In this document: positions 9,214 through 47,787 of the stretch, piece by piece
How the letters are laid out: every line of letters starts with the position of its first letter
Position numbering within the stretch: the stretch's first letter is position 1
Assembly: GCA_964609125.1 (NCBI GenBank)
Contig: CAZSQX010000002.1
Coordinates: forward strand, 102,621 to 166,620
DNA: 64,000 bases
From: an uncultured bacterium
GTDB taxonomy: Bacteria; Eisenbacteria; RBG-16-71-46
Reading direction: 5' to 3'
The notes under the pieces: generated by a model
What the model was told of the DNA's origin: nothing
The model's input: the letters and a program-made list of their open reading frames with translations, nothing else
Database searches by the model: none
Position numbers and translations under genes: made by a program

Positions 9214-9229
9214 CCGGGCGATCGCCCGG
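9214..9229. terminator. perfect 16-bp palindrome ccgggcgatcgcccgg between convergent genes (candidate bidirectional terminator hairpin)
   Basis: Lies in the 66-bp gap between the GDE-like stop (9168) and the AsmA stop (9235). A longer imperfect hairpin spans ~9205-9236. No U-tract. Confidence 0.4.
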
Positions 9230-9234
9230 CCGGC

Positions 9235-11844
9235 TCAGCGCGGCGTCGTGTCCGGGGCCGGCGCGGGCGGCGGGGCCGGGGTCGCGCCCTGCTTCCTCCC
9301 GAAGAACCCCTCGAGCAGCCCCTTCGCCGCGCTCCGGAGCGTGTCGCGCTCGCCGCCGGGCGTGAGGCGCGTGGCCGCGGCCGCGGAGTCGCCCGCGGCG
9401 GCCGAGTCCTGCCGGCCGCCGAGCCGCTCCAGCAGCGCCCGGCGAGCCGCCTCGCGCGCGTCGGCCTCGAGCCTCGCGCGCTGCCCGGCGAGCGCCTCCG
9501 AGGCGCGCCCGGCGAGCCGAGCACGCATGGCATCCGTGTCCCAGGCGACTCGCGGCGCGCGCGCCGGGCCGCTCACGCGCAGGTCGAGCAGCATCCGGCC
9601 CTGCGGGTCGGCGAGCGCGCCTGCCGCGAGCGCGGCGCGCGCGCCCAGCGCCTCCACGGCCGCGGGCGGCAGCGTCACGCTCACCGCGTAGTCGAGCGCG
9701 CCGTCGAATCCGACCGCGCCCACGAGCTTCCAGTCGCCGCTCGGCCCGCTGAGCTGGACCGCGTCGGTGGTCAGCCGGCCGTCGTGGATGTGCATGGGCA
9801 GCTCGAGCTTCTTGAAGTCGAGCTGGCGGAGCTTCGGCACCTTCACGAACCGCGCCACCGCCTCCAGCGCGGGGCCGGGGCCGAGGCGGCCCTCGGAGAT
9901 CGCGGCGAGTCCCACCAGCGTGAGCGTGCGCTTGAGGTCATCCGGCGTCTGGCCGGCACCCGAGAACTCGAGGTTCGTGCTGAGCGTGCCCGCGAGCAGG
10001 TCCCTGACCGGCGTCCACGCGCCGAGGAGCGCCCCGGCCTTGACGGTGTCCACCACGGCGCGCACCGCGTAGACCGGCTTGCGCGTGTCGCGCAGGTCGA
10101 AGCGCGCGTCGCCGCGCACGCTGCCGCCGTAGCCCTGGAGCGTGAACCGCGGCGACTCGAGCGCGGCCGGCGAGAGCTTCGCCTCGGCCTGCACGTCGCT
10201 CACGTCCAGCCGGCCCTGCCTGAGGCGCGCGATCGCCACCCGGCCGCCGCCGCGCGCGTTGGGCAGGAACGGCGCGCCCGGCGTCGTGGGCAGCAGCTCG
10301 GCCAGGTCCAGGTGCGGTGAGCGGAACGTGAAGTCCACGTCCGCGGGCGGGACCTTCCCGGGCTCGGCCAGCAGCGCGAGCGGCCGCCCGACGCTGGCAT
10401 CCAGCGTGTAGGACGACTGTCCGGCGCGCGCCGAGAGCTGCTTCACGGTGGCGCGCTGCGCCGAGAACTCCACCCGGCCGTTCACCTGCTCCACCTTCTT
10501 CGGGAGCCCCGCGCCCTCCACGCTCACGTCGTGGAGGTCGGCCGCGCCCGCCAGTGCCAACGTGCCCGGGTCCTTCGCCCGGCCGCGGCCGCTCACGTCC
10601 ACGGCCGCGCGGCCCGCGAGCCGCGTGTCCTTCGCCGCGAGCGCGGGCGCGATGGCCGCCAGGTCCACGTTTCCGCGCACGGCGAAGTCCAGCATCGGGT
10701 CGGCGAACCGCCACACCGCGAGCCGGGCCGCGACCGGCTGGCCGGAGACGCGCGCGCGCAGGTCGGGGATCACGAGCGAGTCGGGGCGGAAGTTCGCGGC
10801 GAACGCCAGGTCGCTCACCTCGGCGGGAGCGCCTGGGTAGCGGAACGCGGCGTCCCGCACCGTGAGCACGCCGGTGAGGGCGGGCAGCGCGCCGGGCGCC
10901 ACGCTCCCGCGCGCGGCGAGGTCGAACGCCAGCGCGCCGCGGCCGGTGATGCCGCTCACCGCCTTCGCGTCGGCGACCGCGACCCACTCGAGCACCTGCG
11001 CCAGGTCCACGCCGCTGCCGCGCGCCTGGAGCGCGTAGCGGGCGCGCGGGCCCACGCTGTCCACGAGCCCCGAGAGCGCCACCTGCGTGCCGCCGAGTCG
11101 GAGCGCCATCTCCTCGAGCGCGAGCCGCCGCGCGGCCGCGTCGAACTTGCCGCGGTGCCGCACGTTCCACTCGAGCCGGGCGAGGCCCTGCTGCATCTCG
11201 CCCGCGCTCCGCGCCGTGAGCGGGCCCGTGGTGAGGCCCGAGAGCACGGTCTCGCCGCCGGTGGCGACGCGGGCGCCGCCCTTCTCGGCGACCAGGTCCA
11301 TTCGCGTCTCGAGTCGGAGCATCATCCGTCGCCCCGCACGCAGGTCGTCCACGAGCACCCCGCCGTCGCGCACGCGGAACTCGCGGACGTCGAGGTCCAG
11401 CGCGGGGGGTGCGGCCGCGCCGGGCTTGCCGCCGGGCGCGGCGCCGATGCCGTCCAGGTTCGTGGTGCCGTCGGCACGCAGCAGCAGGTGGAGCGCGGGG
11501 CCCGCGAGCGCGAGCCGGCGCACGCGCACCTGGCGCCCGAGGAGCGCCGGCACGTCCAGGTCCAGGTCGAGCGAGGCCGCCGAGAACGCGGCGCCGCGCT
11601 CGAACCCGCCCGGCTCCGCCAGCTCCAGCCTCCGCACCGCGAGCCGCACCGGCGGGAACAGCGAGAGCGAGACCTTCTCGAACCGCACCTCGCGCGCGAG
11701 GCTGCGCGACAGCTGCTCGCGCACGAGCCGCGTGGCGCGCTCGGGCGGCAGCAGGATCCCGAGCGCGCCCCACGCGAGCAGGAACAGCGCGAGCGGCGCC
11801 GCGGCGATCCACACCCACGGCGGCACGCGGCGGGAGGCGCTCAT
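9235..11844 (-). CDS. AsmA family protein
   Basis: 869 aa with N-terminal TM anchor, then long repetitive beta-rich AsmA-like region. Confidence 0.8.
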   Translation of the reverse strand: MSASRRVPPWVWIAAAPLALFLLAWGALGILLPPERATRLVREQLSRSLAREVRFEKVSLSLFPPVRLAVRRLELAEPGGFERGAAFSAASLDLDLDVPALLGRQVRVRRLALAGPALHLLLRADGTTNLDGIGAAPGGKPGAAAPPALDLDVREFRVRDGGVLVDDLRAGRRMMLRLETRMDLVAEKGGARVATGGETVLSGLTTGPLTARSAGEMQQGLARLEWNVRHRGKFDAAARRLALEEMALRLGGTQVALSGLVDSVGPRARYALQARGSGVDLAQVLEWVAVADAKAVSGITGRGALAFDLAARGSVAPGALPALTGVLTVRDAAFRYPGAPAEVSDLAFAANFRPDSLVIPDLRARVSGQPVAARLAVWRFADPMLDFAVRGNVDLAAIAPALAAKDTRLAGRAAVDVSGRGRAKDPGTLALAGAADLHDVSVEGAGLPKKVEQVNGRVEFSAQRATVKQLSARAGQSSYTLDASVGRPLALLAEPGKVPPADVDFTFRSPHLDLAELLPTTPGAPFLPNARGGGRVAIARLRQGRLDVSDVQAEAKLSPAALESPRFTLQGYGGSVRGDARFDLRDTRKPVYAVRAVVDTVKAGALLGAWTPVRDLLAGTLSTNLEFSGAGQTPDDLKRTLTLVGLAAISEGRLGPGPALEAVARFVKVPKLRQLDFKKLELPMHIHDGRLTTDAVQLSGPSGDWKLVGAVGFDGALDYAVSVTLPPAAVEALGARAALAAGALADPQGRMLLDLRVSGPARAPRVAWDTDAMRARLAGRASEALAGQRARLEADAREAARRALLERLGGRQDSAAAGDSAAAATRLTPGGERDTLRSAAKGLLEGFFGRKQGATPAPPPAPAPDTTPR

Positions 11845-11959
11845 GCGCGGGTCTCACGCGGGGGACGGAGCGTCACGCGCGGCATGATGCCACATCGCCG
11901 CCGCGCGGACGCCCGTGCGTGTGGACGCCCCGAGGGCGCGGCGCGTAGAGTCGCACGCC

Positions 11960-12637
11960 ATGGCGAGCCCCCCGCAGGACGCGGCGCAGGTCTCGGACGC
12001 CGTCCGCGCCCACCGGCTGGTCGCGGTCATCCGCGCCGCAAGCCCGGAGGCCGCGCTCGGCGCGGCCCGCGCGGTGATCCGCGGCGGCATCGCCCTCGTC
12101 GAGATCACGTACTCGGTCCCCGACGCGCCGTCGGTGATGCGCGAACTCGCAGCCGAGGCGCGCCCGGGCGTGGTCGTGGGCGCCGGCACGGTGCTCACCG
12201 CGCGGCAGGCGCACGACGCGCTCCGCGCCGGCGCGCGGTTCCTCATCGCGCCCAACGTCTCGGCCGAGGTGGCGGCGGTCGCACGCGAGACCGGCACGCT
12301 CTACTGCCCGGGCGCCTACACGACCGGAGAGATCCTGCACGCGGTCGCGCAGGGCGCGCACCTGGTGAAGGTCTACCCGGTGGGCGTCGCGGGCGGGCCC
12401 GACTACATCAAGGTGATCCGCGACCCGCTCCCCGACATCCCCATGCTCGCCGCGGGCGGCACGAACCTCGAAAACGTGGTGCCGTTCCTCGCCGCCGGCT
12501 GCGTCGCGTGCGGGCTGGGCGGCGCGCTCGCCGACCCCGCGCTCGCGCTGGCCGGCCGCTTCGCCGAGATCGAGTCGCGCGCCCGGGCGTTCGTGGCGCG
12601 CGCGGCGTCGTTCGCGCCGGCGGCCGCGCGGGGCTGA
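11960..12637 (+). CDS. eda: 2-dehydro-3-deoxyphosphogluconate / 4-hydroxy-2-oxoglutarate aldolase
   Basis: KDPG aldolase signatures: GIALVEITY, LIAPNV, KVYP, GGT. Start at M16 of ORF 11915..12637. Confidence 0.8.
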   Translation: MASPPQDAAQVSDAVRAHRLVAVIRAASPEAALGAARAVIRGGIALVEITYSVPDAPSVMRELAAEARPGVVVGAGTVLTARQAHDALRAGARFLIAPNVSAEVAAVARETGTLYCPGAYTTGEILHAVAQGAHLVKVYPVGVAGGPDYIKVIRDPLPDIPMLAAGGTNLENVVPFLAAGCVACGLGGALADPALALAGRFAEIESRARAFVARAASFAPAAARG

Positions 12638-13911
12638 TGCGGCGGCCCCGCCTCCGGGACGCTCCCGCGACGCCGGCGACCCCGCGCGCGTTGCGCCTCG
12701 CCCTGGCGCTGGTCCTGCTGCCGCTCGCGACCCCCGCGCGCGCGAGCTACGAGGAATTCGCCACGTTCGACGTGGGCCGGCAGGAGGCGGACGACGAGAA
12801 CCTGCTCGACCACGTGCTGGTCCGCCCGCCGGTCGAGTGGCGTGACGAGTGGACGCGGACGCGGGCCGGGTTCCGCTCCATGCAGGGCTGCTTCACCTCG
12901 GGCAAGTGGTACCTGGACCACCAGCTCGTGTTCCGCGTGCCGATGAGCGACAGCACCCGGTTCGATCTCGAGATCCGGGAGGTCTCGGACGACGAGTCGT
13001 TCTACGGCTGGACCTCGCTCGACTTCCGCTTCCCCATCCCGGGCGCCGGGCTGTGGGGCGCGCGGTTCCGCCCGACGTTCGACAAGGCCCGCCAGGACGC
13101 CGCGCTGCTCTGGGACGTGGGCCACGCGGGCACGGCCCTTCAAGTGAGCGCCGTCATGGGGCTCGAGGACGTGTTCAACAAGCTGTGGGCGTCGCGCCAG
13201 ACGCAGGTGGGCGACGAGTACCAGCCCTACGAGCGCCACCCGTTCGAGCCCGCGCTCGCGCTCGCTTGGCGCGGGCCCGCGCACGAGGTCGCGGTCTCGG
13301 GCAAGTGGCTCACGCCCTCGGTCAAGCGCTTCGAGACCCATGACCCGGCCGAGCGCCGCCGCGAGCGGCTGTGGGGCGTGAAGCACGCGGCCAGCCTCGC
13401 GCGCCGTTTCGGCGGCACCCGCGCCGAGCTGGGGTTCGAGCAGACGCAAACGTCGTCGTGGGCCGAGTGGCAGACGGTGGCGGGCGACCATCATCTCTAC
13501 CGCCGGCGCTGGCGCGTCGAGGGCGCGGTGAGCCGCGCGATCGGCGAGCGCGGAGAGGTGGGCGTGCGGTTCTTCTACCAGGAGCGCGACCAGGTCTGGC
13601 GGCCGCCGCACGGCAACTCCTCGCTCGGCATCATCGACCGCATGCCCATGCTCGAGGGCGCTTTCGCCGCGCCGTGGGACCTGCGCGCCCGCGTCGGGTT
13701 CATGCGCAACCGGGTCACGGTGGACCCGTCCGGCCGGATCCCCGTGTTCACCTGGGGCACCCGGGTCGAGACTCGGTTGTTTCTCACGCTCCAGAAGCGG
13801 TTCGGACGGCTGCTCCTCCAGGGCACGGAGGGGCTCGAGCTCGACTCGGAGCACTACGACGTGGCCCTCATCCACGACAAGGGCTTCCTCCAGCTCCAGG
13901 CCACGTTCTAG
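12637..13911 (+). CDS. secreted hypothetical protein
   Basis: ATG overlaps the eda stop (TGATG). Arg-rich n-region plus hydrophobic core signal peptide; Trp/Tyr-rich mature protein; no recognisable domain. Confidence 0.55.
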   Translation: MRRPRLRDAPATPATPRALRLALALVLLPLATPARASYEEFATFDVGRQEADDENLLDHVLVRPPVEWRDEWTRTRAGFRSMQGCFTSGKWYLDHQLVFRVPMSDSTRFDLEIREVSDDESFYGWTSLDFRFPIPGAGLWGARFRPTFDKARQDAALLWDVGHAGTALQVSAVMGLEDVFNKLWASRQTQVGDEYQPYERHPFEPALALAWRGPAHEVAVSGKWLTPSVKRFETHDPAERRRERLWGVKHAASLARRFGGTRAELGFEQTQTSSWAEWQTVAGDHHLYRRRWRVEGAVSRAIGERGEVGVRFFYQERDQVWRPPHGNSSLGIIDRMPMLEGAFAAPWDLRARVGFMRNRVTVDPSGRIPVFTWGTRVETRLFLTLQKRFGRLLLQGTEGLELDSEHYDVALIHDKGFLQLQATF

Positions 13912-14442: not shown

Positions 14443-14716
14443 GTCGGAGCGCGCGCACGACGGCGCGCACGGGCCGCGGTCGGTCCGCTCCGGGGCCCCG
14501 GCCGATGTCCGGGGCCCGGAGCTTGCACGCGCCGCCCCGCGCCTCGTAGGCTCCCGCCCCTCGCGCCCGGAACACGTTGTGCCGACACGGCCTCGTGCGT
14601 GTCGTCGCGGCGGGCCGGCGCCTCCGACGTCCCGCGTTTCGGCAGGGCGGCGCCGCACTGTGCGGCGGCCGCGAGCCCAGTACCGGGCTTCCGACATAGT
14701 GCCTAAGGAGAACGAG

Positions 14717-16237
14717 ATGCGCCACCGCCTCCGGTTCGCCCCGCTCGCCCTGGTCCCGCTGCTCGCGGCCGGCGTGGCCGTGGCCGAGCCCCTCGGATCG
14801 CACTGGGAGCTGACGCCGTTCGGCGGGTTCACGATGTTCGACAGCAAGCTGCGCTTCCCCGGCAGCAACCTGCCGCTCACCGACGACCTGCACGTGGGCG
14901 GGCGGGTGGCGTGGCAGTCGAGGTCGTGGTTCGGCCTCGAGGCCGCGGGCGGGTTCTCGCCCACCACCGAGGACACGCCCGGCGGGCGCGACTTCGACTG
15001 GCTGCACGTGAGCGGCAACCTCGTGCTCTCGCCCGCGCGCGGGCGCTGGGGCGGCCCGTACCTGTTCGCGGGCGGCGGCACGGCGCAGGGCAAGCCGTCC
15101 AACGCCTCGGGCAGCACCGAGACCACGCTCGAGTTCGGCGGCGGCGTGAAGCTGTGGATGACGGACGCCGTGGGCCTCCGCTTCGAGGCGCGCGACGTGT
15201 CGTTCAAGTCGTTCTCGGGCAGCTCCTCCTCGCGGCTCCACACCGTGGTGCTGGGCGCCGGACTCACGTTCGCGCTGGGCGCCACACCGCGCGACACCGA
15301 CGGCGACGGTGTGCCCGACAAGAAGGACAAGTGCCCCGGCACGCCCGCGGGCGCCAAGGTGGACGCGAACGGCTGCCCGATCGACACCGACGGCGACGGC
15401 GTCTACGACGGCCTCGACCAGTGCGAGGGCACGCCGAAGGGCGCCACGGTGGACGCGAAGGGCTGCCCGAGCGACGCCGACGCCGACGGCGTGTTCGACG
15501 GCCTCGACCAGTGCGCCGACACCCCGAAGGGCGCCACGGTGGACGCGCGCGGCTGCCCGAGCGACTCGGACGGCGACGGCGTGCTCGACGGAATCGACCA
15601 GTGCCCCGGCACGCCCAAGGGCGCGGCCGTGGACGAGAGGGGCTGCCCGAAGGACTCGGACGGAGACGGCGTGTTCGACGGGCTGGACGAGTGCCCCGAC
15701 ACAATGGCCGGACTCAAGGTGGACGCCAAGGGCTGCCCGATCGAGGTGACCGAGCGCGAGACGGAGCTGCTGGACACCGGCATGATCCGGCTCCAGAACG
15801 TGAACTTCGAGACCAACAAGTCGGACATCCTTCCGGAGAGCTACCCCACGCTGGACGCGGTGGGCACGCTGCTCACGCGCTGGCCGCAGTTGAAGCTCGA
15901 GATCGGCGGCCACACCGACTCGCGCGGCTCCGCGGCGCGCAACCAGACGCTGTCCGAGGCGCGGGCCGAGGCGGTGCGCACGTACCTGACGGGCAAGTTC
16001 GCGCAGCTCGCACCCGGGCAGTTCACGGTGAAGGGCTACGGCGAGGCGAAGCCCGTGGTGCGCAACACCAGCGAGTTGAACTGGGCGAAGAACCGCCGCG
16101 TCGAGTTCGTGGTGATCAACAAGGACGTGCTGCGGAAGGAGATCGAGCGCCGCCGCCTGCTCCAGCAAGACGAGGCGGCGCCGCGCGACACGACGACCGC
16201 CCCCGCGCCGGCGCCGGCGGACACGACGAGGCGGTAG
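14717..16237 (+). CDS. OmpA-family outer membrane protein with N-terminal beta-barrel and thrombospondin type-3 repeats
   Basis: AAGGAG RBS; signal peptide; five DxDxDGxxDxxDxCPxTPxGAxVDxxGCP repeats; C-terminal OmpA domain (NxxLSxxRAxxV, NRRVEF). Confidence 0.85.
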   Translation: MRHRLRFAPLALVPLLAAGVAVAEPLGSHWELTPFGGFTMFDSKLRFPGSNLPLTDDLHVGGRVAWQSRSWFGLEAAGGFSPTTEDTPGGRDFDWLHVSGNLVLSPARGRWGGPYLFAGGGTAQGKPSNASGSTETTLEFGGGVKLWMTDAVGLRFEARDVSFKSFSGSSSSRLHTVVLGAGLTFALGATPRDTDGDGVPDKKDKCPGTPAGAKVDANGCPIDTDGDGVYDGLDQCEGTPKGATVDAKGCPSDADADGVFDGLDQCADTPKGATVDARGCPSDSDGDGVLDGIDQCPGTPKGAAVDERGCPKDSDGDGVFDGLDECPDTMAGLKVDAKGCPIEVTERETELLDTGMIRLQNVNFETNKSDILPESYPTLDAVGTLLTRWPQLKLEIGGHTDSRGSAARNQTLSEARAEAVRTYLTGKFAQLAPGQFTVKGYGEAKPVVRNTSELNWAKNRRVEFVVINKDVLRKEIERRRLLQQDEAAPRDTTTAPAPAPADTTRR

Positions 16238-20462: not shown

Positions 20463-20837
20463 GGGTCGGTTCCGGGGTTGCCGCACGGGCCCGGCACGAA
20501 CCGGGCGCCGGCGGAGCGTGAGCGTCGCGCATCCTAGGGGAGGCGCGGCGGCCGGAGCGACCGGCACTCCGGCTCGACGCATTCGCATGCACTTACGTCG
20601 GTCCCGGATGGTCCGGCGGGCTTCTGCGCAGAAGCGAGAGTGCCGGGTGGCCGATAGGTGGCCCATGGGCACCCGGCCGGCGGGCGCCGGCTCGCGATGA
20701 ACGGACGAGACGGCCCGACGGCCGGGTGGGAGCGGCTTGTCGCCTCCCCCCGGCCCTCGTACCCTACCGCGCGTGCGGTCCGGATCGGCGGCCCGAACGT
20801 CGCGACCGGAGTGCGTGATCCACATGGAGGTGGTCCT

Positions 20838-22304
20838 ATGCGCCTGGTCAGAACTTTCGCCGCGCCCGTCCTCGCGGCGGCGTGGCTCGCGTCCGCCGTC
20901 CCGGCGGCCGCGGTCGAGTCCAAGACGTGGACGGTCTCGCTGCTCGGCGGCTACGGCGTGTTCGACGAGCGCCTGCGCTACCCGGCCGACTCGCTCGCCG
21001 ACGCCCCGCTCGGGGGCGTGCGGATCGGCTACAGGATCGCCCGCAACTTCACGATCGAGGCGAGCGGCAGCTACGGGAAGACGCACGAGCAGCGGCGCAA
21101 CGGCTCCAACGGCGACGACGTCACGGTGATCACGGGCGGCGGCGCGCTCCTCGCCAACCTTTCGCCCGAGTCCAAGTGGGGCGACCTCTACCTGGGCGCG
21201 GGCTACGGCTACAACCGCTACAAGGCCGATTCGGCCAGCGACGACGCGCACTTCGGCACGTTCGACGCGATCGCGGGCTGGACGATCCCGCTGGGCGACG
21301 TGGCCCGGCTCCGGCTCGAGGCGCGCAACCTCCTCAACGTGCCCAAGGAGGACTGGGCCAAGGCGAGCCTCTCCGACCAGCAGTACTGGGGCGGGCTCAC
21401 GTTCGGCTTCGGCGGCGCGCCGAAGGACACCGACGGCGACGGCGTGCCGGACCGGAAGGACAAGTGCCCCGACACGCCGAACGGCGCCACGGTGGACGCG
21501 ACGGGCTGCCCGACGGATTCCGACGGCGACGGCGTGTGGGACGGCCTCGACCAGTGCATCGGCACGCCCAAGGGCGCGACCGTGGACGCGAAGGGCTGCC
21601 CGACGGACGCGGACGGCGACGGCGTCTACGACGGGCTGGACGCGTGCGGCGACACGCCGAAGGGCGCGACCGTGGACGCGCGCGGCTGCCCGGCCGACTC
21701 CGACGGCGACGGCGTGTTCGACGGCCTCGACCAGTGCGCCGGCACGCCGAGGGGCGCGACGGTGGACGCGAAGGGGTGCCCGACCGACTCCGACGGCGAC
21801 GGCGTGTTCGACGGCCTCGACCGCTGCCCCGGCACCGCCGCCGGCCTCAAGGTGGACTCGGAGGGCTGCCCGATCGAGGTCACCGAGAAGGAGACCGAGC
21901 TGCTCGACACGGGCATGATCCGGCTCCAGAACGTGAACTTCGAGACCGGCCGCTCGACGCTGCTGCCCGAGAGCTACCCGGCGCTCGACGAGGTCGGGAC
22001 CATTCTGCTCAAGTGGCCGCAGCTCAACATCGAGATCGGCGGTCACACCGACTCGCGCGGCAGCCTGCCGTTCAACCAGCGCCTGTCCGAGGATCGCGCC
22101 CAGTCGGTGAAGGACTACCTGACGCAGAAGTTCACCGGCCTCGCGGCGGACCAGCTCTCGATCAAGGGCTACGGCGAGAGCCGGCCGCTGGTGCGGAACA
22201 CGACCCAGCTCAACATGGCGAAGAACCGCCGCGTCGAGTTCAAGGTCACGAACCGCGACGTGCTGAAGAAGGAGATCGAACGGCGGAAGCTGCTTCAGAA
22301 GTAG
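20838..22304 (+). CDS. OmpA-family outer membrane protein with TSP3 repeats (paralog of 14717..16237)
   Basis: GGAGG RBS; signal peptide; five TSP3 repeats; OmpA C-terminal domain. The C-terminal ~150 aa are near-identical in motif order to the first paralog. Confidence 0.85.
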   Translation: MRLVRTFAAPVLAAAWLASAVPAAAVESKTWTVSLLGGYGVFDERLRYPADSLADAPLGGVRIGYRIARNFTIEASGSYGKTHEQRRNGSNGDDVTVITGGGALLANLSPESKWGDLYLGAGYGYNRYKADSASDDAHFGTFDAIAGWTIPLGDVARLRLEARNLLNVPKEDWAKASLSDQQYWGGLTFGFGGAPKDTDGDGVPDRKDKCPDTPNGATVDATGCPTDSDGDGVWDGLDQCIGTPKGATVDAKGCPTDADGDGVYDGLDACGDTPKGATVDARGCPADSDGDGVFDGLDQCAGTPRGATVDAKGCPTDSDGDGVFDGLDRCPGTAAGLKVDSEGCPIEVTEKETELLDTGMIRLQNVNFETGRSTLLPESYPALDEVGTILLKWPQLNIEIGGHTDSRGSLPFNQRLSEDRAQSVKDYLTQKFTGLAADQLSIKGYGESRPLVRNTTQLNMAKNRRVEFKVTNRDVLKKEIERRKLLQK

Positions 22305-22411: not shown

Positions 22412-23692
22412 GTGCGCACCCCCGCGTGGCTCGCGCTCGCGCTGGTCCTGGGCGCGCCGGCCGCGCCAGCCGCGCCCCAGTGGCAGGCGCTCCCCGGGGC
22501 GCCGGTCGCCCAGCGGCTGGACGATCTCCACTTCCTGGACGCGGACCACGGCTGGGTCTGCACCGGCGACGGCGGCATCTACCGCACGAGCGACGGCGGC
22601 GTCACCTGGCTGCTCGCCTACGAGAACCCCGCGCGCTACTTCCGCTGCATCCGCTTCGCCGACGCGCAGCACGGCTTCGCCGGCACGCTCACCTCGGGCG
22701 CGGTCCTCATGCGCACCACCGACGGCGGAGTGACCTGGAGCACCGTCGCCGACCTGCCCGAGCCGCGGCCCAACGCCCTGTGCGGACTGTCCGTGGCATC
22801 GCCCTCCGTCGTGTACGGCGTCGGCTCGTACGCCGGCCCGGCGCGGCTCATCAAGTCGGCGGACGGCGGCGCCACGTGGACGAGCAAGGACCTGGCCCCG
22901 CTCGCGAGCACGGCCATCGACGTGCACTTCAGGAACCCGTCGGAGGGCTTCGTGGTGGGGAGCGTGGGCGCGTTCCCCAGCTCGAACCGTTCGGTCGTGC
23001 TGCACACCACCGACGGCGGTGCCACCTGGCAGCAGCGCTTCGTCGGCACGCGGCTCGGGGAGTGGTGCTGGAAGATCTCGTTCCCCACGCCCGCGGTGGG
23101 CTACGTGTCGCTCGAGCGCTTCGCGGGGCCGATGTTCCTGCTCAAGACCGTGGACGGCGGCCTGACGTGGACGGAGCTGCCGTTCCCGGACTACAACGAG
23201 CAGGGCGTCGGATTCGCCACGCCCGACGTGGGCTGGATCGGCGGCGCCGACAATCCGACCATGGGCACGACCGACGGCGGCTCGACCTGGACGCCGACGC
23301 CGTGGGGCGACTACCTGAACCGGTTCCAGTTCCTGAGTCCGACGCTCGGCTACGGCAGCGGCGTCACCGTGTACCGCTATGCGGAATCGTCGCTGGCCGC
23401 GGGCGACGACAAGCCGCGGCCGCGGCCGGCGCAGGTCGCCCCCAATCCGTTCGGCCCGCGGACCACGATCCGGTTCACGCTCCGGCGGCCCGGGCGCGTC
23501 CAGTTGCTGATCGCCGACCCGTCCGGCCGCGTCGTGCGGACGCTGGGCGAGGGGCCCCGCGTCGCCGGGCCGCACGTGGTGGAGTGGGACGGGCGCACGG
23601 ACCGCGGCGCGCGCGCGCCGGCGGGCATCTACCTCTACATCCTGCACGCCGGCGAGCAGCACGAGATGGGGAAGCTGGTGCGCGTCCCGTAG
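22412..23692 (+). CDS. BNR/Ycf48-like beta-propeller protein with C-terminal FlgD-Ig/T9SS-type sorting domain
   Basis: GTG start with GGAGG RBS. Repeated TxDGGxTW units. Last ~80 aa are PNPFxxxTxIRFxL...GRxVRTL...AGIYLYIL. Confidence 0.7.
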   Translation: MRTPAWLALALVLGAPAAPAAPQWQALPGAPVAQRLDDLHFLDADHGWVCTGDGGIYRTSDGGVTWLLAYENPARYFRCIRFADAQHGFAGTLTSGAVLMRTTDGGVTWSTVADLPEPRPNALCGLSVASPSVVYGVGSYAGPARLIKSADGGATWTSKDLAPLASTAIDVHFRNPSEGFVVGSVGAFPSSNRSVVLHTTDGGATWQQRFVGTRLGEWCWKISFPTPAVGYVSLERFAGPMFLLKTVDGGLTWTELPFPDYNEQGVGFATPDVGWIGGADNPTMGTTDGGSTWTPTPWGDYLNRFQFLSPTLGYGSGVTVYRYAESSLAAGDDKPRPRPAQVAPNPFGPRTTIRFTLRRPGRVQLLIADPSGRVVRTLGEGPRVAGPHVVEWDGRTDRGARAPAGIYLYILHAGEQHEMGKLVRVP

Positions 23693-27140: not shown

Positions 27141-27250
27141 GCCCGGGCCGGGATCGATTCACCCGCGGGGACCCCGCTTCGCGGCCCCACTCGCGAATCG
27201 ACGCCGCCCCGACCCGGCTTCCGAGGTGCCGAATCGATGAAAGCCATCTA
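27141..27250. repeat. ~100-bp palindromic repeat element, copy A (inverted relative to copy B)
   Basis: The reverse complement of ~27141-27242 matches 30377-30477 with about 5 mismatches in ~101 bp. Contains nested inverted subrepeats (tcgattc/gaatcga, ccgggccggg/cccggcccgg). Intergenic. Confidence 0.75.
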
Positions 27251-27261
27251 GAGTCCCGCGC

Positions 27262-28058: not shown

Positions 28059-28718
28059 ATGCGCATCGCCTACCACGTCATGTCGGCACCGGCGCCGCTC
28101 GGGCTCCTGTTCCTCGCCGCCGGCGAGAGGGGCGTGCGTCACGTCGAGTTCATGGACCGGAAGAGCCTCAAGCGCACCGTCGCCGCGCACGACGCGCGCT
28201 GGCCGGGCGGCACCTGGGAGCCGTCCGTGCTCGGGCTCCGCCCGTATGCGGACCAGCTCGACCAGTTCTTCACCGGCACCGCGAAGTCGCTCGACTGGCC
28301 GCTGGACCTGGCGGGCGACGAGCTGTCGGTGGCGGTGTGGCGCGCGCTCCGGCGCGTGCCGTACGGCGAGACGTGCACCGTGGCCGAGCTGGCGCGCGAG
28401 GTGGGCCAGCCGCGCAACCTGCGCGCGGTGGCGCAGGCCGTACTCACGAACCCGCTCGCGATCGTGGTGCCGTGCCACCGCGTGCTGGGGGCGGACGGCA
28501 AGCCCTCCAACTACGTGGGCGGGCTCCCGCGCAAGAAGTTCCTGCTCGCGCTCGAACAGCGGTTCGGGCGCATGGCCGGGCTGGACGAGAACCGCGTGAT
28601 CGGCGAGCTCGTCCGCCGCGTGCCGCGGCCGGCCGCGCGCCAGCGGCCCGCGCTCAAGCGCGCGACGCCGAAGAAGCGCGTCGCCGTGCTGGTCTCCGCC
28701 AAGAGGCGCCCGCGCTGA
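28059..28718 (+). CDS. ogt: methylated-DNA--protein-cysteine methyltransferase (Ogt/MGMT) with basic C-terminal tail
   Basis: Active-site PCHRV and the ETxTVAELAxxVGxPxNLRAVAxAxxxNP helix-turn-helix region. Lys/Arg-rich C-terminal ~40 aa. Confidence 0.85.
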   Translation: MRIAYHVMSAPAPLGLLFLAAGERGVRHVEFMDRKSLKRTVAAHDARWPGGTWEPSVLGLRPYADQLDQFFTGTAKSLDWPLDLAGDELSVAVWRALRRVPYGETCTVAELAREVGQPRNLRAVAQAVLTNPLAIVVPCHRVLGADGKPSNYVGGLPRKKFLLALEQRFGRMAGLDENRVIGELVRRVPRPAARQRPALKRATPKKRVAVLVSAKRRPR

Positions 28719-28734
28719 CCCCGCCGCTCCCCGG

Positions 28735-29907
28735 ATGGATCCCACCGGCATGCGACCCGACCTCCGCCGCCGCGGTCCCGCCTGGGCGCTCGTGACGCTG
28801 TCGCTGGGGCTCGCGCTCGCCGGCGCGCGGCCGGTGCACTCGCTGCCCGCCTACGCCGCGCGCACCGGGCTCGACTGCCGGTCGTGCCACTTCGACCCCA
28901 ACGGCGGCGGCCCGCGCAACGCGTTCGGGTTCGTGTTCGAGAAGCAGCGCCACGACCTGGCTCCCGATCCCGACCCGCGCCGGGCGGAGTTGCCCTCCAC
29001 GAACCGGTTCGGCGACGTGCTCTACGTGGGCACGAACACGCGCATGCTCTACGTCGGGATGGGGACCTGGGACCTGGTGCAGGCCTCGTCGTTCTTCCAG
29101 ATGCAGGGCGCGCTCGGCCTGACGCTCCGGCCGCACCCGAACCTGGCCATCGTCATGGTGCGCGACTTCGGCGAGTTCTCCGGCGACATCACGCGCGACC
29201 TCTACGGCCTGATCCAGGACGGCGGCGGCAACTAATACGTGAAGGCCGGGCGCATCCGCGGCGTGTTCGGCCTGCGCCAGGACGACCACACCGCGGGCAC
29301 GCGCGGCGGGTTCCTCGACACCGCGGCGGGCGGCACCGGCGGGCTCCTGCCGTACGACCCGCGCGGCGTGGCGACCGGGATCGAGGCGGGTGTGGCCCGC
29401 GGCGGCTGGACGCTTTCGGCCTCGCTCACGAACGGCGGGCCCGCGTTCGCGAACCCGGTCCAGACCGTGGCCGCGAAGCTCGCCGCTCCGGCGCCGTTCG
29501 GACGGGTGGGGTTCTCCGTCTACGACGACTTCGCGACCTCCACCCGGCAGCGGCACACGCGCTGGAGCGGCTTCGGGTTCGCGCGGATGCCGGGGGTACC
29601 CGACCTCACGCTCCAGGGCGAGATCGGCCTCGGGACCGACGACCTCGGGAACGGGGTGAAGCACAACCTGCGCGCGACCTGCGCCCAGGCCGACTACCGC
29701 TTCAGCCGCGCGTTCACGCTGCGCGGGCGCTACGACTTCGCCGACGTCTTCCGCAGCGAGCCGGGGAACGCCTCCGAACGTTTCGCGGCCGAAGGCGAGT
29801 GGACGCTCGTGCCGTTCGCCGACCTGCGGCTCGGCTACCGCGAGATCGTCCCCGAGAAGTCGGGGAACGAGCACATGTGGCTCGCCATGGTCCACCTCTA
29901 CTACTGA
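28735..29907 (+). pseudogene. Cyc2-like fused monoheme cytochrome c-outer membrane porin, interrupted by one in-frame TAA (29233..29235)
   Basis: ORFs 28735..29235 and 29239..29907 share a frame, separated only by TAA. Part 1 has a signal peptide and CRSCH (CxxCH) about 10 residues after the predicted cleavage site. Part 2 has no signal peptide but ends with beta-barrel-type ...VHLYY. The pattern of short amphipathic strands runs straight across the stop. Confidence 0.55.
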
Positions 29908-29908
29908 C

Positions 29909-30370
29909 ATGGCGCGCCGGAGCCTCGACCTCGCTCGGCTCGTCGCGGCCGGCCTCGCGCTGGTCTCGGCGGTCGGCTGCACCGAGAAGGTGCCGATGCC
30001 CACGGATCCCACCGGCGGACCCGGACCGGGTCCGGGCGGCCCTCCCCTGACCCCCGACTCGATCCAGGCGATCTTCACCGCCCGCTGCATCGGCTGCCAC
30101 TCCGGCGGCTCGCCGGCGGCCGGCATGGACCTGAGCGCGGGCCACTCCTACGAGAACACGGTCGACGTGCCGTCGGCCGCGTGCGCGGGCCTCGACCGCA
30201 TCGAACCGAACGATCCCGCGAACAGCTGCCTGGTGCGGCGCATCGAGGGCTCCGTGTCGCCGCGCATGCCGCTGGGCGGCACGGGGCCGCTCCCCGCGGC
30301 GGACATCGCGAAGATCCGCAGTTGGATCTCGCAGGGCGCGCCCGGCGTCGTGTCGGGCCCGGTGCCCTAG
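29909..30370 (+). CDS. lipoprotein monoheme c-type cytochrome (PSCyt1-like domain)
   Basis: Lipobox LVSAVGC. Then IFTARCIGCHSGGSPAAGMDLS ... CLVRRIEGSVSPRMP ... IRSWISQGAP, matching the Planctomycete-type cytochrome c (PSCyt1) pattern. ATG overlaps the upstream stop (TGACATG). Confidence 0.65.
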   Translation: MARRSLDLARLVAAGLALVSAVGCTEKVPMPTDPTGGPGPGPGGPPLTPDSIQAIFTARCIGCHSGGSPAAGMDLSAGHSYENTVDVPSAACAGLDRIEPNDPANSCLVRRIEGSVSPRMPLGGTGPLPAADIAKIRSWISQGAPGVVSGPVP

Positions 30371-30376
30371 GAGTCC

Positions 30377-30509
30377 TTCATCGATTCGGCGCCACGCAAG
30401 CCGGGCCGGGGCGGCGTCGATTCGCGGGTGGGGCCGCGAAGCGGGGTCCCCGCGGGTGAATCGATCCCGGCCCGGGCCGGCGGTGATGCGGAATCAGCGA
30501 AAGCCATCT
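30377..30509. repeat. ~100-130-bp palindromic repeat element, copy B
   Basis: See copy A. Copy B carries extra imperfect terminal inverted ends (ttcatcgattcgg ... cggaatcagcgaa). Lies 7 bp after the cytochrome lipoprotein stop. Confidence 0.75.
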
Positions 30510-42739: not shown

Positions 42740-43582
42740 CTAACCGAACCGGCCCGTGATGTAGTCCTCGGTGAGCTTCTCGCGCGGGCTCGTGAACACC
42801 CGCCGGGTGTCGTCGACCTCCACCAGCTCCCCCTGGAGCAGGAACGCGGTGCGGTCGGAGATCCGCGCCGCCTGCTGCATGTTGTGGGTCACGACCACGA
42901 TCGTGTACCGGCCCTTGAGCTCCAGGATCAGCTCCTCGATTCGGGTGGTCGCGGTCGGATCGAGCGCCGAGGCCGGCTCGTCCATGAGGATGACCTCGGG
43001 CTCCACGGCGAGGCAGCGGGCGATGCACAGGCGTTGCTGCTGCCCGCCCGAGAGCTGGAGCGCGGACCGGTCGAGCCGGTCCCGCACCTCGTCCCACAGC
43101 GCGGCGCGGCGCAGGCTCTGCTCGACGCGCGGCGCCAGCGCGTCGCGGTCGCGCACACCCAGCATGCGCAGGCCGAACGCCACGTTCTCGAAGATGGACT
43201 TGGGGAACGGGTTCGGCCGCTGGAACACCATGCCCACGCGCCGACGCAGCTCGACCACGTCCGTCCCGGTCGCGTACACGTCCTGGCCCGAGACGTTCAG
43301 GCTGCCCGTCACGCGCACGCCGGGGATGAGGTCGTTCATGCGGTTGAAGGAGCGGAGCAGCGTGCTCTTGCCGCAGCCGGACGGGCCGATGATCGCGGTG
43401 ACCGCGCTGTTCGGGATCTCGAGCGTGATGCCCTTGAGCGCGTGGTGGCTGCCGTAGTGGAGGTGGAACCCGCGCGCGGCGAGCCGCGCCTCGGCCGGCC
43501 GCTCGGGCGCGACGGTCTCGCGTTCGGGCACGTGCGGCCGGCTCACGAGCGTCGCGCTTCGTTCGGGGGTGTCGACGGTCAC
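42740..43582 (-). CDS. pstB: phosphate ABC transporter ATP-binding protein PstB
   Basis: Walker [10 protein letters not shown], signature LSGGQQQRL, Walker [15 protein letters not shown] start. Confidence 0.9.
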
Positions 43583-43583
43583 G

Positions 43584-44531
43584 TCAGCCCTTTCCCAGGA
43601 GGCGGGCCCGCAGCCGGGCCCGGAGGAGGATGGCGGTGAGGTTGAGCAGGAACGTCAGCACGAGCAGGACCAGCACCGTGCCGTAGAGCAGCGGTCGGGT
43701 CGCGTCCACGTCGGGCGACTGGGTCGCCAGCACGAACACGTGGTAGCCCAGCTCCATGAACTGGTCGGTGGGCGACTTGGGGAGGAACGGCAGGAAGTAG
43801 GCCGCGCCCGTGAACAGGATCGGCGCCACCTCGCCCGCGCCGCGCGCCACCGCGAGGATGGCCCCGGTGAGGATGCCGGGGAGGGCCTGCGGCAGCAGCA
43901 CGTGCCGCACCGTCTGCCAGCGCGTGGCGCCGAGCGCGAGCGACGCCTCGCGCTGGTCCCGGGCCACGGTGCGGAGCGACTCCTCGGTGGTGACGATGAC
44001 CACGGGCAGGTTGAGGAGCGCGAGCGTGAGCGCGGCCCAGATCAGCGCCGGCTGGCCCCAGACCACGTCGAGGCCCATCGCGCGGTCCATCTCGCGACCG
44101 ATGAACTGGATGAAGAAGCCGAGCCCGAACAGCCCGAACACGATGCTCGGCACGCCGGCCAGGTTGTGCACCGCGAAGCGCACCGCCCTCGTGGTCCAGG
44201 CGTCCTGGCGCGCGTAGAGGTGGAGCCACACCGCCGCGCCGACGCCGAACGGGATCAGCGCCACGACCATCAGCACCACGAGCAGCACGGTCCCGTAGAT
44301 CGCGGGGAAGATGCCGCCCTCGGTCATGCCCTCGCGCGGCGCGCCGGCGATGAACTCCCACGTCACCGCGCCCCAGCCGTTCCACGCGATCTCGCCGAGG
44401 ATGACCGCGACCATGGCCACGACGAGCAGCGCCGCGAATCCCGACAGCGCGGTGAACGCGGCCCCGCCCACGTCGATCCGGCGCCCGGGCCGGGCGAGCG
44501 GAGCCACCGCGGGCAGGCCGGCCGCGGTCAC
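43584..44531 (-). CDS. pstA: phosphate ABC transporter permease PstA
   Basis: GTG at 44529..44531 overlapping the pstC stop (GTGA). Six TM helices and an EAA-like loop. The N-terminal half of ORF 43584..45383 is artefact. Confidence 0.85.
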
Positions 44532-45478
44532 GCGCCCGCCAGCCGCTTGCGCAGCCGGTCCACGAACACGCCCGCCACGACGTTGATGAGGAACGTCACG
44601 CTGAACAGGAGCGCGCCCAGGAAGAACAGCGTGGCGTAGTGGGGGCTCCCGACCACGACCTCGGCCAGCTCGGCGGCGATCGTCGCGGACAGCGTGCGGA
44701 CGGAGTCGAACGGCGTGAACGAAGTGATGGCCGCGTTCCCCGAGGCCATCAGCACGATCATGGTCTCGCCCACCGCGCGCGCGAGTCCCAGCAGGCAGCC
44801 CGCCGTGACGCCGGCCGAGGCCGCGGGGAGCGAAACGTGCCAAGCCGTCTGCCACGGGCTGGCCCCGAGGCCGAGCGAGGCCTCGCGGAACGCGCGCGGC
44901 ACCGAGCGCAGCGCGTCCTCGGCCACCGTGAAGATGGTCGGGATGATCCCGAGTCCGAGCGCGACGCCGGCCGTGAGCGCGTTGAGCCGCATGGGCGATC
45001 GGGTCACCGACTGGAGCCACGAGGCCAGCACCATCAGTGCGAAGAAGCCCATCACCACCGACGGGATGCCCGCGAGCAGCTCGATCGCCGGCTTGAGCGC
45101 CTCGCGCACGCGGGGCGGGGCGAACTCCGCGCTGTAGACCGCCGCCAGGACCGCGAGCGGCACCGCGAAGACCAGCGCGATGACCACCACCTTGAGCGTG
45201 CCCGTGATCAGCGGCACGAGCCCGTACTTGGGCACCTCCCCCACCGGCTGCCAGAGCGGCGTGGCGAGGAATCCACGCAGGCTGGACTCCTTCTGGACCC
45301 CGGGGTCCACCAGGATCGGCCACGCCTCCTTGAACACGAACAGCACGATGAGCGCGAGCCCGGCCACGGCCGAGAACGCGCACGCGCGCAGCAGGAACTC
45401 GATCGCGCCCTCAACGGCGCGGAGCCGCACGCGTGCCGCGTTCGGCCGGGGGGCGGGGGAGGCGCCGGGGATGGCCAC
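44528..45478 (-). CDS. pstC: phosphate ABC transporter permease PstC
   Basis: GTG start; six TM helices; EAA loop region. Confidence 0.85.
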   Translation of the reverse strand: MAIPGASPAPRPNAARVRLRAVEGAIEFLLRACAFSAVAGLALIVLFVFKEAWPILVDPGVQKESSLRGFLATPLWQPVGEVPKYGLVPLITGTLKVVVIALVFAVPLAVLAAVYSAEFAPPRVREALKPAIELLAGIPSVVMGFFALMVLASWLQSVTRSPMRLNALTAGVALGLGIIPTIFTVAEDALRSVPRAFREASLGLGASPWQTAWHVSLPAASAGVTAGCLLGLARAVGETMIVLMASGNAAITSFTPFDSVRTLSATIAAELAEVVVGSPHYATLFFLGALLFSVTFLINVVAGVFVDRLRKRLAGA

Positions 45479-46305
45479 TAGTTGAGCGGGAAGTATCCGA
45501 CCTCGGCCGCAAGCTGCTGGCCCTCGGCCGACAGCACCCAGTCCACGAACTTCTTCGCGTCGCCCGCCGGGGGCTTGCGCAGGTAGAAGAACAGCGGTCG
45601 CGATAGCGGGTAGCTGCCGTCCCTGACCGCCGCTGCGCTCGGAAGGACCGCCGCGGCCTGCGCGTCCTTCTTCATCGCCACCTCGCGCACGCCCTTGGCG
45701 TACGCGGCGCCGCCATAGCCGATCCCGTTCGGGTCCTTGGAGACCGCGTTCACGACCGCCGCCGTGCCGGGCAGCGTCTGGACCCGCGCCGAGAAGTCTC
45801 GGTTCGCGAGCACGTGCTCCTTGAAGAACCCGTAGGTACCGGAATTGTTCTCGCGGCCGTACAGGATGATGGTGGCGTCCCGGCCGCCCAGATCCTTCCA
45901 GTTGGTGATCGTGCCCATGTAGATGCCCTTCAGCTGCTCGACGGTGAGGGACTGCAGCGGATTGCCCGCGTGCACGTACACCGCGAGGCCGTCCTTCGCC
46001 ACCGGGATCTCGACCCCCATCGTCTGGTAGCGGTCCCGGAGCTTGAGCCTCTCGTCCTGCTTCATGCTGCGAGAGGACTGGCAGATCTCGGTGGTGCCGT
46101 TGATGAGGGCGGCGATGCCGGTGCCCGAGCCGCCGCCGGTCACCATGACGACCTGCCCCTTGTTCTCGTTCATGAACTGCTCGGCCCAGCGCTGGCCGAG
46201 GATCACCATGGTGTCGGAGCCCTTGACGGTGATGGGCCTTCCGGCGGCGACCGGCGAGGCGATCGCCGCGACGAGCGCGAGCGAAGCGAGGCTGCGTCGA
46301 TTCAT
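45478..46305 (-). CDS. pstS: phosphate-binding protein PstS
   Basis: Signal peptide; phosphate-binding motifs (GSDTM..., GGGSGTG). GGAGGG RBS. Confidence 0.85.
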   Translation of the reverse strand: MNRRSLASLALVAAIASPVAAGRPITVKGSDTMVILGQRWAEQFMNENKGQVVMVTGGGSGTGIAALINGTTEICQSSRSMKQDERLKLRDRYQTMGVEIPVAKDGLAVYVHAGNPLQSLTVEQLKGIYMGTITNWKDLGGRDATIILYGRENNSGTYGFFKEHVLANRDFSARVQTLPGTAAVVNAVSKDPNGIGYGGAAYAKGVREVAMKKDAQAAAVLPSAAAVRDGSYPLSRPLFFYLRKPPAGDAKKFVDWVLSAEGQQLAAEVGYFPLN

Positions 46306-46321: not shown

Positions 46322-47569
46322 TCAGAACTTGTGCTGGAGTTGGATGGTCCACAGGTTGTCGTGCGGGTCGGTGAACGCGCCGCCCGCGGCGGGGGAGTCG
46401 GTGGAGATCGCGTCGTAGGACACGGTGACGCGGGTGAAGCCGTCGAAGTACGCGTTGAGCCCGAGGCTCCAGCGCTCGTACTGGTCGTGGTCGACGTCCA
46501 CGTTGGGGTCGTAGGTGTCGAAGCGGACCACGGCCTGGAAGCGCTCGCCCAGGTTCTGCACGCCCATGAGGTACCAGCCGCGCACGTCGGTGGCGAGGTG
46601 CGAGGCGACCGCGCCGGCCTTGAGCAGCCGGTTCGGGTTGGCCGAGGTGGGGGCGACGACCAGCGTGCGCACCGAGTCGGCGTTCACGTCGTGGCCCGAG
46701 AAGAACTCGCCGCGCAGCGAGCCGCCGCCGACCTGCGGCAGCGTCCAGAACGCCTGGGCGTCGAAGCCGAGCCGGGTCTTGTCCGTGGTCACGTCGGCCC
46801 CGGTGAGCGGCGTCACGTGCCGGCCCCGGTAGCCCGAGACCGCCGCGTCCCACGCGCCCTGGGACCAGCGCACGCGGCCCACGACGTCCTTGGACTTGGT
46901 CGGGTCGGTGGCGGGGAAGTCGGCGCTGTTCACGCCGCCGCCGTTCAGGATCGCGATCACGGTGCGCAGCTGCGGCCGCCACTGGCTCTCCAGCTTCAAC
47001 CCGCGGTCGCGCTCGCCCGAGAACAGCACGTTCTCGGCGCGCGAGCGCTCGGGGAGCTCCCGCACGCTCGAGGAGCGCTCGATCTCCCAGCCGAACGGCA
47101 CGTTGAACTGGCCGAGCGTGAGCTGGTGGTCGTGGAGCGGCGTCCACGGGTCGAGCAGCGTGACGTAGGCCTCCAGCAGGCGGATGGTGCGATCGGCTCC
47201 GCCGTCGATGTAGACCACCGCCTGCGACAGCGGGCTCGAGTCGTAGGCGAGCTTGAGGCGCGCTCGGCGGATGAAGAAGCGCGTCGCGTTGGGCGCCGAG
47301 ATCGTGCCGGCCGCGCCGCTCACACGGACGCTGTCGCTGCTCGCCTCGCTGAACTCGGTGCGGGCCTGCACGTAGCCCGAGAACTTGAACTTCTTGAGCT
47401 TGTCGGTGTCGGCCATGAGCGTCTGGATCTGTTCGTTCAGGCCGTCCAGCAGTCCCTGCAGCTCCGCGCGCGTGACGGCGGCGGTGTCGGCGTCGCCCTG
47501 GGCGAGGGCCGGCCTGGCTCCGGCGGCGCACAGCAGGGCCGCCATGGACACGGACAGGATGTGCCTCAA
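46322..47569 (-). CDS. phosphate-selective porin OprO/OprP family
   Basis: Signal peptide, long beta-barrel, C-terminal ...LQHKF. TTG at 47567..47569 or ATG at 47543..47545 as start. Confidence 0.75.
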   Translation of the reverse strand: MRHILSVSMAALLCAAGARPALAQGDADTAAVTRAELQGLLDGLNEQIQTLMADTDKLKKFKFSGYVQARTEFSEASSDSVRVSGAAGTISAPNATRFFIRRARLKLAYDSSPLSQAVVYIDGGADRTIRLLEAYVTLLDPWTPLHDHQLTLGQFNVPFGWEIERSSSVRELPERSRAENVLFSGERDRGLKLESQWRPQLRTVIAILNGGGVNSADFPATDPTKSKDVVGRVRWSQGAWDAAVSGYRGRHVTPLTGADVTTDKTRLGFDAQAFWTLPQVGGGSLRGEFFSGHDVNADSVRTLVVAPTSANPNRLLKAGAVASHLATDVRGWYLMGVQNLGERFQAVVRFDTYDPNVDVDHDQYERWSLGLNAYFDGFTRVTVSYDAISTDSPAAGGAFTDPHDNLWTIQLQHKF

Positions 47570-47787
47570 GCGCTCCTCCTCGCGGAGCCGGGGGCCTCGC
47601 GCGCGGTCGGCGACGCGGTACTCCCCGGCGACCTCGGGCGTCCGTCGCGGGATGCTCCGGCGCCCGCGTCCATGTTCGGGCCGGGAGAGTTTCGGCAACG
47701 GCTCGCGATGGTTACGGGGAGGTAACAAAGCTGCCGGAATGTCCCGGCGGCCCGCGTCTCGGGCGGTGCGCGCGGCGCGGCCGCGCG

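Follow-up and report, generated by a model that had tools for sequence, protein, structure and literature searches.

A probable recent pseudogene in a conserved, unnamed family of fused monoheme cytochrome-porins from uncultured Eisenbacteria

The split gene, its product and its relatives

In the present work, we analysed a 64,000-nucleotide stretch of DNA (hereafter the window) from an uncultured bacterium of the Eisenbacteria lineage, and in it a locus at 28735..29907 whose features all lie on the forward strand. Translated throughout, the locus yields 391 codons in one frame with a sole internal stop, a TAA at 29233..29235. This falls on codon 162, at the first residue of the fifth barrel strand, where the closest relatives carry TAC (Tyr); a single C-to-A substitution at 29235, outside any homopolymer, separates the two codons. 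The stop divides the frame into an upstream open reading frame (ORF) of 166 aa (28735..29235) and, in the same frame, a downstream fragment of 222 aa (29239..29907), which starts with GTG, covers strands 5-16 up to a terminal ...VHLYY and ends with TGA at 29905..29907. The first ORF offers two start codons, an ATG at 28735 and a second at 28750, the latter being the start used by the homologues and giving an ancestral protein of 385 aa; depending on the start, the window copy is thus split into 161 or 166 aa and 222 aa. Read from the second ATG, the intact-equivalent frame (28750..29907) encodes a signal peptide, one CRSCH heme site and a 16-strand barrel with the VHLYY end. The original prediction, which had described one frame broken by this single TAA, with a single CxxCH, a VHLYY terminus and a downstream GTG piece devoid of a signal peptide, is borne out on all of these points: in alignments with intact homologues the downstream fragment covers their middle and C-terminal portions, and it has no signal peptide of its own. 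GC3 is 0.96-0.97 in both ORFs, in a window of 74% G+C, and among 37 GC3-filtered ORFs of the window TGA serves as stop in 22 and TAG in 14, the only TAA being that at codon 162. A scan for promoters and terminators around the locus gave nothing useful, and Rfam returned zero matches anywhere in the window.

The N-terminal piece reads MRPDLRRRGPAWALVTLSLGLALAGARPVHS-LPAYAARTGLDCRSCH... and holds the single CxxCH. Its first 31 residues (28750..28842, start codon included; MRPDLRRRGPAWALVTLSLGLALAGARPVHS followed by LP...) form a predicted Sec signal peptide, as judged from an n-h-c pattern (MRPDLRRRG / AWALVTLSLGLALAG / ARPVHS), a helix at residues 5-24 of the AlphaFold2 model and the alignment with the 385-aa homologues; the region also aligns with the signal peptides of Cyc2. 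The heme site lies 12 residues past the predicted cleavage site. Read directly from the sequence, it is a CRSCH (C43, C46 and H47; 28876..28890), the sole CxxCH in the protein; the three residues do not vary across an alignment of 109 homologues and occur in each of the 246 family sequences whose N-terminus is covered, an invariance that argues against a chance motif. Around it extends a monoheme cytochrome c module (residues 32-88; 28843..29013; mean column conservation 0.72), with the signature LPxYAARTGxxCxxCHFDPNGGGPRNxFGFxF followed by the nearly invariant R67-H68 and W78 (the last an Arg in the window). Across the family the signature of the module can be written as [AST][LV]PxYAARTGxxCxxCH[FV][DN]PxGGGxRNx[FY]Gxx[FY].

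Residues 91-384 (29020..29901) make up a 16-strand OprP-type β-barrel according to AlphaFold2 and a fold search. The model, obtained with the family alignment for an intact 385-aa homologue of 99% identity, is confident (mean pLDDT 85.8, pTM 0.82); besides the signal helix it contains a short helical segment bearing the CxxCH (residues 34-79, pLDDT 81-89) and exactly 16 strands, and its best match among solved folds is OprP. The barrel of about 16 strands that had been expected behind a signal peptide and one N-terminal heme is therefore what the modelling returned. Conservation peaks twice, once in the heme module and once in the long strand 5-6 loop (residues 171-206; 29260..29367), which in the model occupies the position of loop L3 of classical porins. 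This loop, with the signature GRxRxxFGLRxDDHTxxTRxGF ... LPYDPR and again a mean column conservation of 0.72, includes the most conserved motifs of the barrel, namely FGLRxDDHT (in which H180 is invariant), R185, F188 and LPYDPR. Conserved charged residues elsewhere in the barrel include R98, D139, R170, E212, K243, R268, R271, E291, D329, R344, E348 and R364, and the nearly invariant ones on strands probably face the lumen. Four further residues, H68, M118, H129 and H180, are conserved at 98-100% and are candidates for the distal heme ligand.

In the window and in its closest relatives the gene order is the same: a DUF2231 gene (reverse strand), a PEMT/ICMT methyltransferase, a DNA_binding_1 (MGMT-type) gene and the barrel gene, followed by a 153-aa lipoprotein cytochrome c, ThiL and an MFS transporter (the last two on the reverse strand); synteny with a contig 82-86% identical to the window extends over more than 13 kb. 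The lipoprotein (29909..30370; lipobox ...AVGC), a monoheme cytochrome c that starts 1 nt past the barrel stop, is intact in the window and displays a CIGCH, a conserved RMPLGG, two conserved cysteines and weak Pfam matches to PSCyt1 and Cytochrome_CBB3. It lies directly downstream of the barrel gene only in the closest clade (barrel identity of at least 60%). In distant Eisenbacteria clades the barrel gene stands alone among housekeeping genes, with cdaA and folP-ftsH-hpt-tilS as neighbours in one clade and hydantoinase/GH3 in another; no oxidase, rusticyanin, cyc1-type or multiheme genes were seen near it there, and the context thus neither supports nor excludes a respiratory role. A conserved operon was considered and rejected, given that the downstream cytochrome c is confined to the closest clade and the neighbours elsewhere are unrelated.

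The joined sequence found 352 relatives in a collection of 5.8 billion proteins, most of the 120 listed being single chains of about 385-400 aa. A profile of 109 homologues, searched against 1.84 billion representatives of 50%-identity clusters, retrieved 2,020 representatives at E <= 1e-3 and 739 at E <= 1e-10. Relatives occurred at 131 loci of GTDB species genomes, of which 80 were kept; by title, 59 of these belong to Ca. Eisenbacteria/Eiseniibacteriota, 12 name no taxon and 9 belong to others, which include Ignavibacteriaceae and Bacteroidetes at 26-27% identity. Distant members, found in Nitrospiraceae, Ignavibacteria and Gammaproteobacteria metagenome-assembled genomes (MAGs), are all labelled hypothetical. 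Neither the joined protein nor either half matched a Pfam or NCBIfam model at E <= 1, the PDB sequences, searched in full with a profile, yielded nothing beyond a chance match at the N-terminus (E 6.3), and a limited literature search found no description of a PxYAARTG/CHFDPNGGG family. The intact protein is a member of a large, unnamed and unannotated outer-membrane family.

Likeness to Cyc2 and the possible role of the intact protein

Several known outer-membrane systems resemble the family in part. OprP/OprO phosphate-selective porins and general 16-strand porins share its fold at an identity of only 14%, and OprP, unlike the window family, carries no heme module; Porin_O_P (PF07396) was not matched at E <= 1 by the joined protein or by either half. 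Elsewhere in the window, a separate ORF (46322..47728) has a Porin_O_P match. MtrAB(C), MtoAB and PioAB are outer-membrane electron conduits in which a β-barrel is combined with c-type heme, but the barrel of about 26 strands and the separate multiheme partner that define MtrB/PioB/MtoB are not seen in the window protein.

The closest likeness is to Cyc2, whose published features are a signal peptide, one CXXCH, a 16-strand porin modelled on OprO/OprP and a length of at least 365 aa (Keffer et al., PMC8406198). The family displays a predicted signal peptide, a single N-terminal CXXCH and a C-terminally fused 16-strand OprO/OprP-like porin, in the same domain order as the Cyc2 proteins of clusters 1-3 (Mariprofundus Cyc2PV-1, Acidithiobacillus Cyc2 and Leptospirillum Cyt572; about 385-420 aa); in both, the mature N-terminus lies about 12 residues before the single CxxCH and the heme module is very short. 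A genuine Cyc2 from Mariprofundus aestuarium (P0359), passed through the same pipeline as a control, was modelled alike (pLDDT 87.0), with 16 strands, OprP as best solved match and a long strand 5-6 loop, the region of its nearly invariant FGQH; a long loop with a conserved F-G-...-H on an OprP-matched barrel is thus common to the two. In the heme module the likeness extends to sequence. An hhalign comparison of the family with 67 Zetaproteobacteria Cyc2 sequences gave a probability of 95.9% (E 5.3e-9) for the full alignments, over the signal and heme region, and of 96.6% (E 5.7e-10; 34 columns, 38% identity) for the cytochrome region with the signal peptides left out. The two heme modules are homologous and share the spacing P-x-aromatic-A-x-x-T-G-x-x-C-x-S-C-H-F ... 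N-x-F-G, with a two-residue GG insertion in the window family.

From this design a role for the intact protein can be proposed. It would be exported through Sec, carry heme attached at C43 and C46 with H47 as axial (proximal) ligand, and be inserted as a barrel by BAM; the heme module and the invariant strand 5-6 loop (FGLRxDDHT, LPYDPR) would be placed in or at the pore, and single electrons would cross the outer membrane, exchanged on the outside with a small, soluble redox species and on the inside with a carrier in the periplasm. Fe2+ comes first among the candidates for the extracellular species, by analogy with Cyc2, whose monoheme design has been proposed to act on dissolved Fe2+ (PMC8406198), and it is from this analogy that we infer a possible iron oxidation by the intact family. 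The periplasmic carrier, in the closest clade, may be the putatively co-transcribed lipoprotein cytochrome c at 29909..30370. On the opposite side, the gene is near phylum-wide in presumed heterotrophs and the strain that has lost it is often recovered, both of which argue against an essential energy metabolism.

A heme porin without electron transfer, serving instead in redox or gas sensing, in peroxide or metal detoxification or in gated solute uptake, would agree with that near phylum-wide presence in presumed heterotrophs, with the housekeeping neighbourhoods and with the loss tolerated in an abundant strain. The unusually high conservation of the barrel, with its many invariant charged lumen residues, would also fit a specific binding site or channel. 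Yet in the one characterised case, that of Cyc2, a covalently bound c-type heme at the periplasmic N-terminus of a porin is an electron-transfer device (PMC8406198), and a second cytochrome c accompanies the gene in the closest clade; we consider these other roles unlikely.

Whether the family is Cyc2 itself, beyond the Cyc2-like architecture of the original prediction, is a separate question, and here the differences weigh more than the shared design. Cyc2 proteins carry two short motifs, AXPXFAR[Q/K][T/Y] just upstream of the CXXCH and PXL 4 residues downstream, both of which served Keffer et al. as inclusion criteria (PMC8406198). In a Cyc2 reference set retrieved with the Cyc2PV-1 tryptic mass-spectrometry peptides of the published Table S1 (PMC8406198), 115 of the 120 Zetaproteobacteria homologues listed have the PAFARQTGAACLSCHFQTFPALNAFG-type motif, written P.FAR[QK][TY]. 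This pattern occurs in none of the 246 family members, whose PxYAARTG takes its place; the SLPAYAART of the window keeps P, the aromatic residue, A and T at the same spacing, with R replaced by A and Q/K by R. P.L at +4 of the CXXCH is equally absent (0/246), the window reading CH-FDPNGGGPRN, where the two-residue insertion of the family falls. Conversely, HFDPNGGGPRN, FGLRxDDHT and LPYDPR, invariant in the window family, are missing from Cyc2. The barrel, far more conserved within its own family, cannot be aligned to that of Cyc2 by sequence (hhalign probability for the barrel alone 0.6%; global alignment uninformative), and against an HMM made from 67 cluster-1 Cyc2 sequences the members of the family reach only 20-30 bits, confined to the N-terminal region. 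A reading of the intact family as genuine Cyc2 iron oxidase, forming a divergent fourth cluster in relatives that would be iron oxidisers, could appeal to the common domain order, size and OprP-type 16-strand fold, to the homologous heme module with its identical spacing, and to the partner periplasmic cytochrome c downstream, which recalls the cyc2-cyc1 organisation of Acidithiobacillus (PMC10654088). With both motifs and any barrel similarity lacking, with invariant motifs of its own and with no iron-oxidation gene context found at the loci inspected, this reading is improbable. Judged from sequence comparison, the family appears to follow the Cyc2 design and to share a homologous heme module without being Cyc2 sensu stricto; given the absence of both motifs and of barrel similarity, it should not be filed as Cyc2 or as an iron oxidase. 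The Cyc2 call thus holds for the design and the heme module and fails for the motifs and the barrel, and the iron-oxidase identity was overstated. A further difference from Cyc2 is that the window copy is a pseudogene, to which we return below.

The suggestion that the locus would extend the known distribution of Cyc2 is also weak, as Cyc2-like genes had already been reported from Eisenbacteria and other MAGs of the FCB group in a 2022 survey (PMC9769843). The Eisenbacteria sequence of that survey comes from the same phylum and has the same general architecture as the window family; we considered whether it belongs to this family and rejected the idea, since, as far as supplementary Fig. S9 of that source goes, its motif is canonical (PAFARKY-type), which places it in Cyc2 proper (PMC9769843).

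It is possible, and we advance it tentatively, that the PxYAARTG-CxxCHFDPNGGG-porins constitute a second, undescribed lineage of fused monoheme cytochrome-porins, a trans-outer-membrane redox device whose substrate or direction would differ from those of Cyc2 iron oxidation. With about 2,000 clusters at 50% identity, the group occurs almost throughout Ca. Eisenbacteria and extends to Ignavibacteria, Nitrospiraceae and Gammaproteobacteria MAGs. Only the heme module is common with Cyc2; the heme pocket would be rebuilt (GGG insertion), and the pore loop is invariant and charged.

Nature of the internal stop codon

Intact versions of the gene exist in very close relatives. The closest (P0001) is 99% identical and has Tyr at the position of the stop (GGGNYYVKAGR); its contig (L003) shows 99.25% DNA identity to 28455..30441 of the window and carries TAC. 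An intact gene with TAC is also present on two further contigs, L089 (98.46% identical over 6.2 kb) and L090, and the intact sister strains, 98.5-99.2% identical, have the 385-aa gene. The split allele recurs as well. Two contigs from JGI samples 3300037465 and 3300043267 (L087 and L088) match the window at 100% identity along 5.5 kb and 4.3 kb, TAA included, and an exact-sequence look-up recovered the exact split products on 6 JGI contigs of differing lengths and on a 240,610-bp NCBI/Logan contig.

When differences were polarised against three intact strains, the window lineage proved to have five private changes in the gene, four of them protein-altering: W78R (TGG -> CGG; 28981..28983), where 94% of the family have Trp; Q127R (29128..29130), where Arg is tolerated in some homologues; Y162*; and L308R (29671..29673), which falls within the conserved NLLA motif in strand 12. 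On the branch of the intact L089/L003 alleles, 6 changes are synonymous and 1 is non-synonymous (1/7 protein-altering), a contrast with a one-sided Fisher p = 0.045 that rests on only 5 window-lineage substitutions; between the same strains, the genes around it carry numerous non-synonymous differences too. The pattern suggests relaxed constraint on the window allele, with the proviso that the sites are few and that the neighbouring genes have such differences as well.

Three explanations had been offered for the stop, namely a recent pseudogene, a sequencing error and an unusual split, and only the first survives well. The locus reads as a recent pseudogene, a nonsense allele apparently fixed in a repeatedly recovered strain, to go by the alleles compared here. 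The C-to-A change at codon 162 truncates the protein after four strands. The putative conduit of the window strain is dead, as the N-terminal fragment comprises the heme module and four strands only and the C-terminal fragment has no export signal.

A functional split, whether by readthrough or recoding of the stop or by assembly of a working barrel from the two pieces, is very improbable. Re-initiation is conceivable at the GTG 3 nt past the stop, GC3 is coding-like in both halves, and the strain with the split allele is the one most often recovered at its identity level. However, the other family members found are single chains, contig-end fragments aside, and the C-terminal piece, devoid of a signal peptide, would remain in the cytoplasm. 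No recoding signal was seen, the stop is a TAA with a T after it, a context that terminates strongly in E. coli, and the same lineage has Arg at the nearly invariant Trp and at the conserved Leu. We accordingly rejected both readthrough or recoding and a split barrel, chiefly for the missing signal peptide of the second piece and the single-chain state of its relatives.

An error of sequencing or assembly, with the gene intact in the organism, has next to no probability: a single base separates TAA from the intact codon and the window derives from a metagenome assembly, but the TAA lies inside 4.3-5.5 kb of 100% identity in assemblies of at least 2 JGI samples, the truncated products recur exactly on the 6 JGI contigs and the NCBI/Logan contig, and the change is a substitution with no homopolymer, the identical allele in independent assemblies excluding such an error for practical purposes.

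Meaning for the family

Overall, we put at roughly 0.7 the probability that the locus is a recently pseudogenised member of a conserved, unnamed family in which a monoheme c-type module of about 55 residues is fused to a 16-strand OprP-type porin. To our knowledge, the Eisenbacteria, a phylum widespread in soil and groundwater, have no cultured members. The dead allele of the window matters less than the family to which it belongs, though it shows that an abundant natural strain can do without the gene. It is the family that deserves attention, as a new form of the fused cytochrome-porin design that would offer a well-conserved, confidently modelled scaffold for studying how one heme works in a porin.

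In metagenomes, microbial iron oxidation is inferred chiefly from one marker gene, Cyc2. Its published definition leans on two short motifs, and a large sister family with the same architecture carries neither. If electrons do cross the outer membrane through this family, present inventories of such conduits in the environment have a gap; and should it prove to be a second lineage of fused monoheme cytochrome-porins, surveys of the environment for iron and extracellular electron-transfer genes that rely on motifs or HMMs would systematically miss it.

An inverted repeat around the barrel block

The gene for the split cytochrome-porin stands within a block that is bracketed by an inverted repeat of 121 nt, with arms at 27141-27261 and 30357-30477 (89% complementary overall, with 101 nt at 95%). 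Exactly four genes are enclosed by the arms: PEMT/ICMT, an MGMT-like gene, the split barrel, and the cytochrome c gene. A GC-rich extended hairpin of ~75 nt lies within each of the two arms, with folding energies of -72 and -63 kcal/mol (RNAfold). Both arms are present in the relatives at 98-100% identity (L087-L089); in the 82% identical relative contig, L001, they were not detected by blastn. The element has no match in Rfam, and it could be REP/MITE-like or represent the ends of a cassette.

Genes adjoining the barrel

Immediately 5' of the barrel gene, across a gap of 31 nt, lies a DNA_binding_1 gene of the MGMT type with a PCHRV motif (28059-28718). Gene callers assign it 219 aa, and the longest ORF in the same frame begins far upstream, at 27339; in the 74% G+C sequence of the window, spurious long reading frames are a typical feature of both strands. 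In two distant Eisenbacteria contigs, L085 and L086, the barrel gene adjoins an FtsH gene (6870-9596 and 10312-13614, respectively), whose AAA domain carries an intein (Intein_splicing match), with a faint LAGLIDADG_3 match in one of the two.

Envelope and putative phosphate genes of the window

A minus-strand ORF with a match to Pfam Porin_O_P (46322-47728), ORFs upstream of it that look like pstB/pstA/pstC (42740-46305), with a C-terminus (...ITGRFG) which we take to be PstB-like, and an ORF with a profile match to Ppx/GppA (58802-60658) together suggest that the window also encodes a phosphate-regulon porin, unrelated in sequence to the cytochrome-porin. Envelope genes are abundant in another part of the window, including an AsmA/YhdP-like protein (9235-11844) and two paralogous outer-membrane proteins (14579-16237 and 20658-22304) that share a layout of OMP_b-brl barrel, thrombospondin type-3 repeats, and OmpA domain. 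FlgD_ig-type C-terminal domains occur in a BNR/Sortilin-like protein (ORF 22412-23692) and in a 1,027-aa protein (ORF 51884-54967), whose gene is upstream of that of a TonB-dependent receptor with CarboxypepD_reg (48861-51887). These domains are probably what the original prediction had described as T9SS-type sorting tails, and their presence is consistent with a genome of the FCB group.
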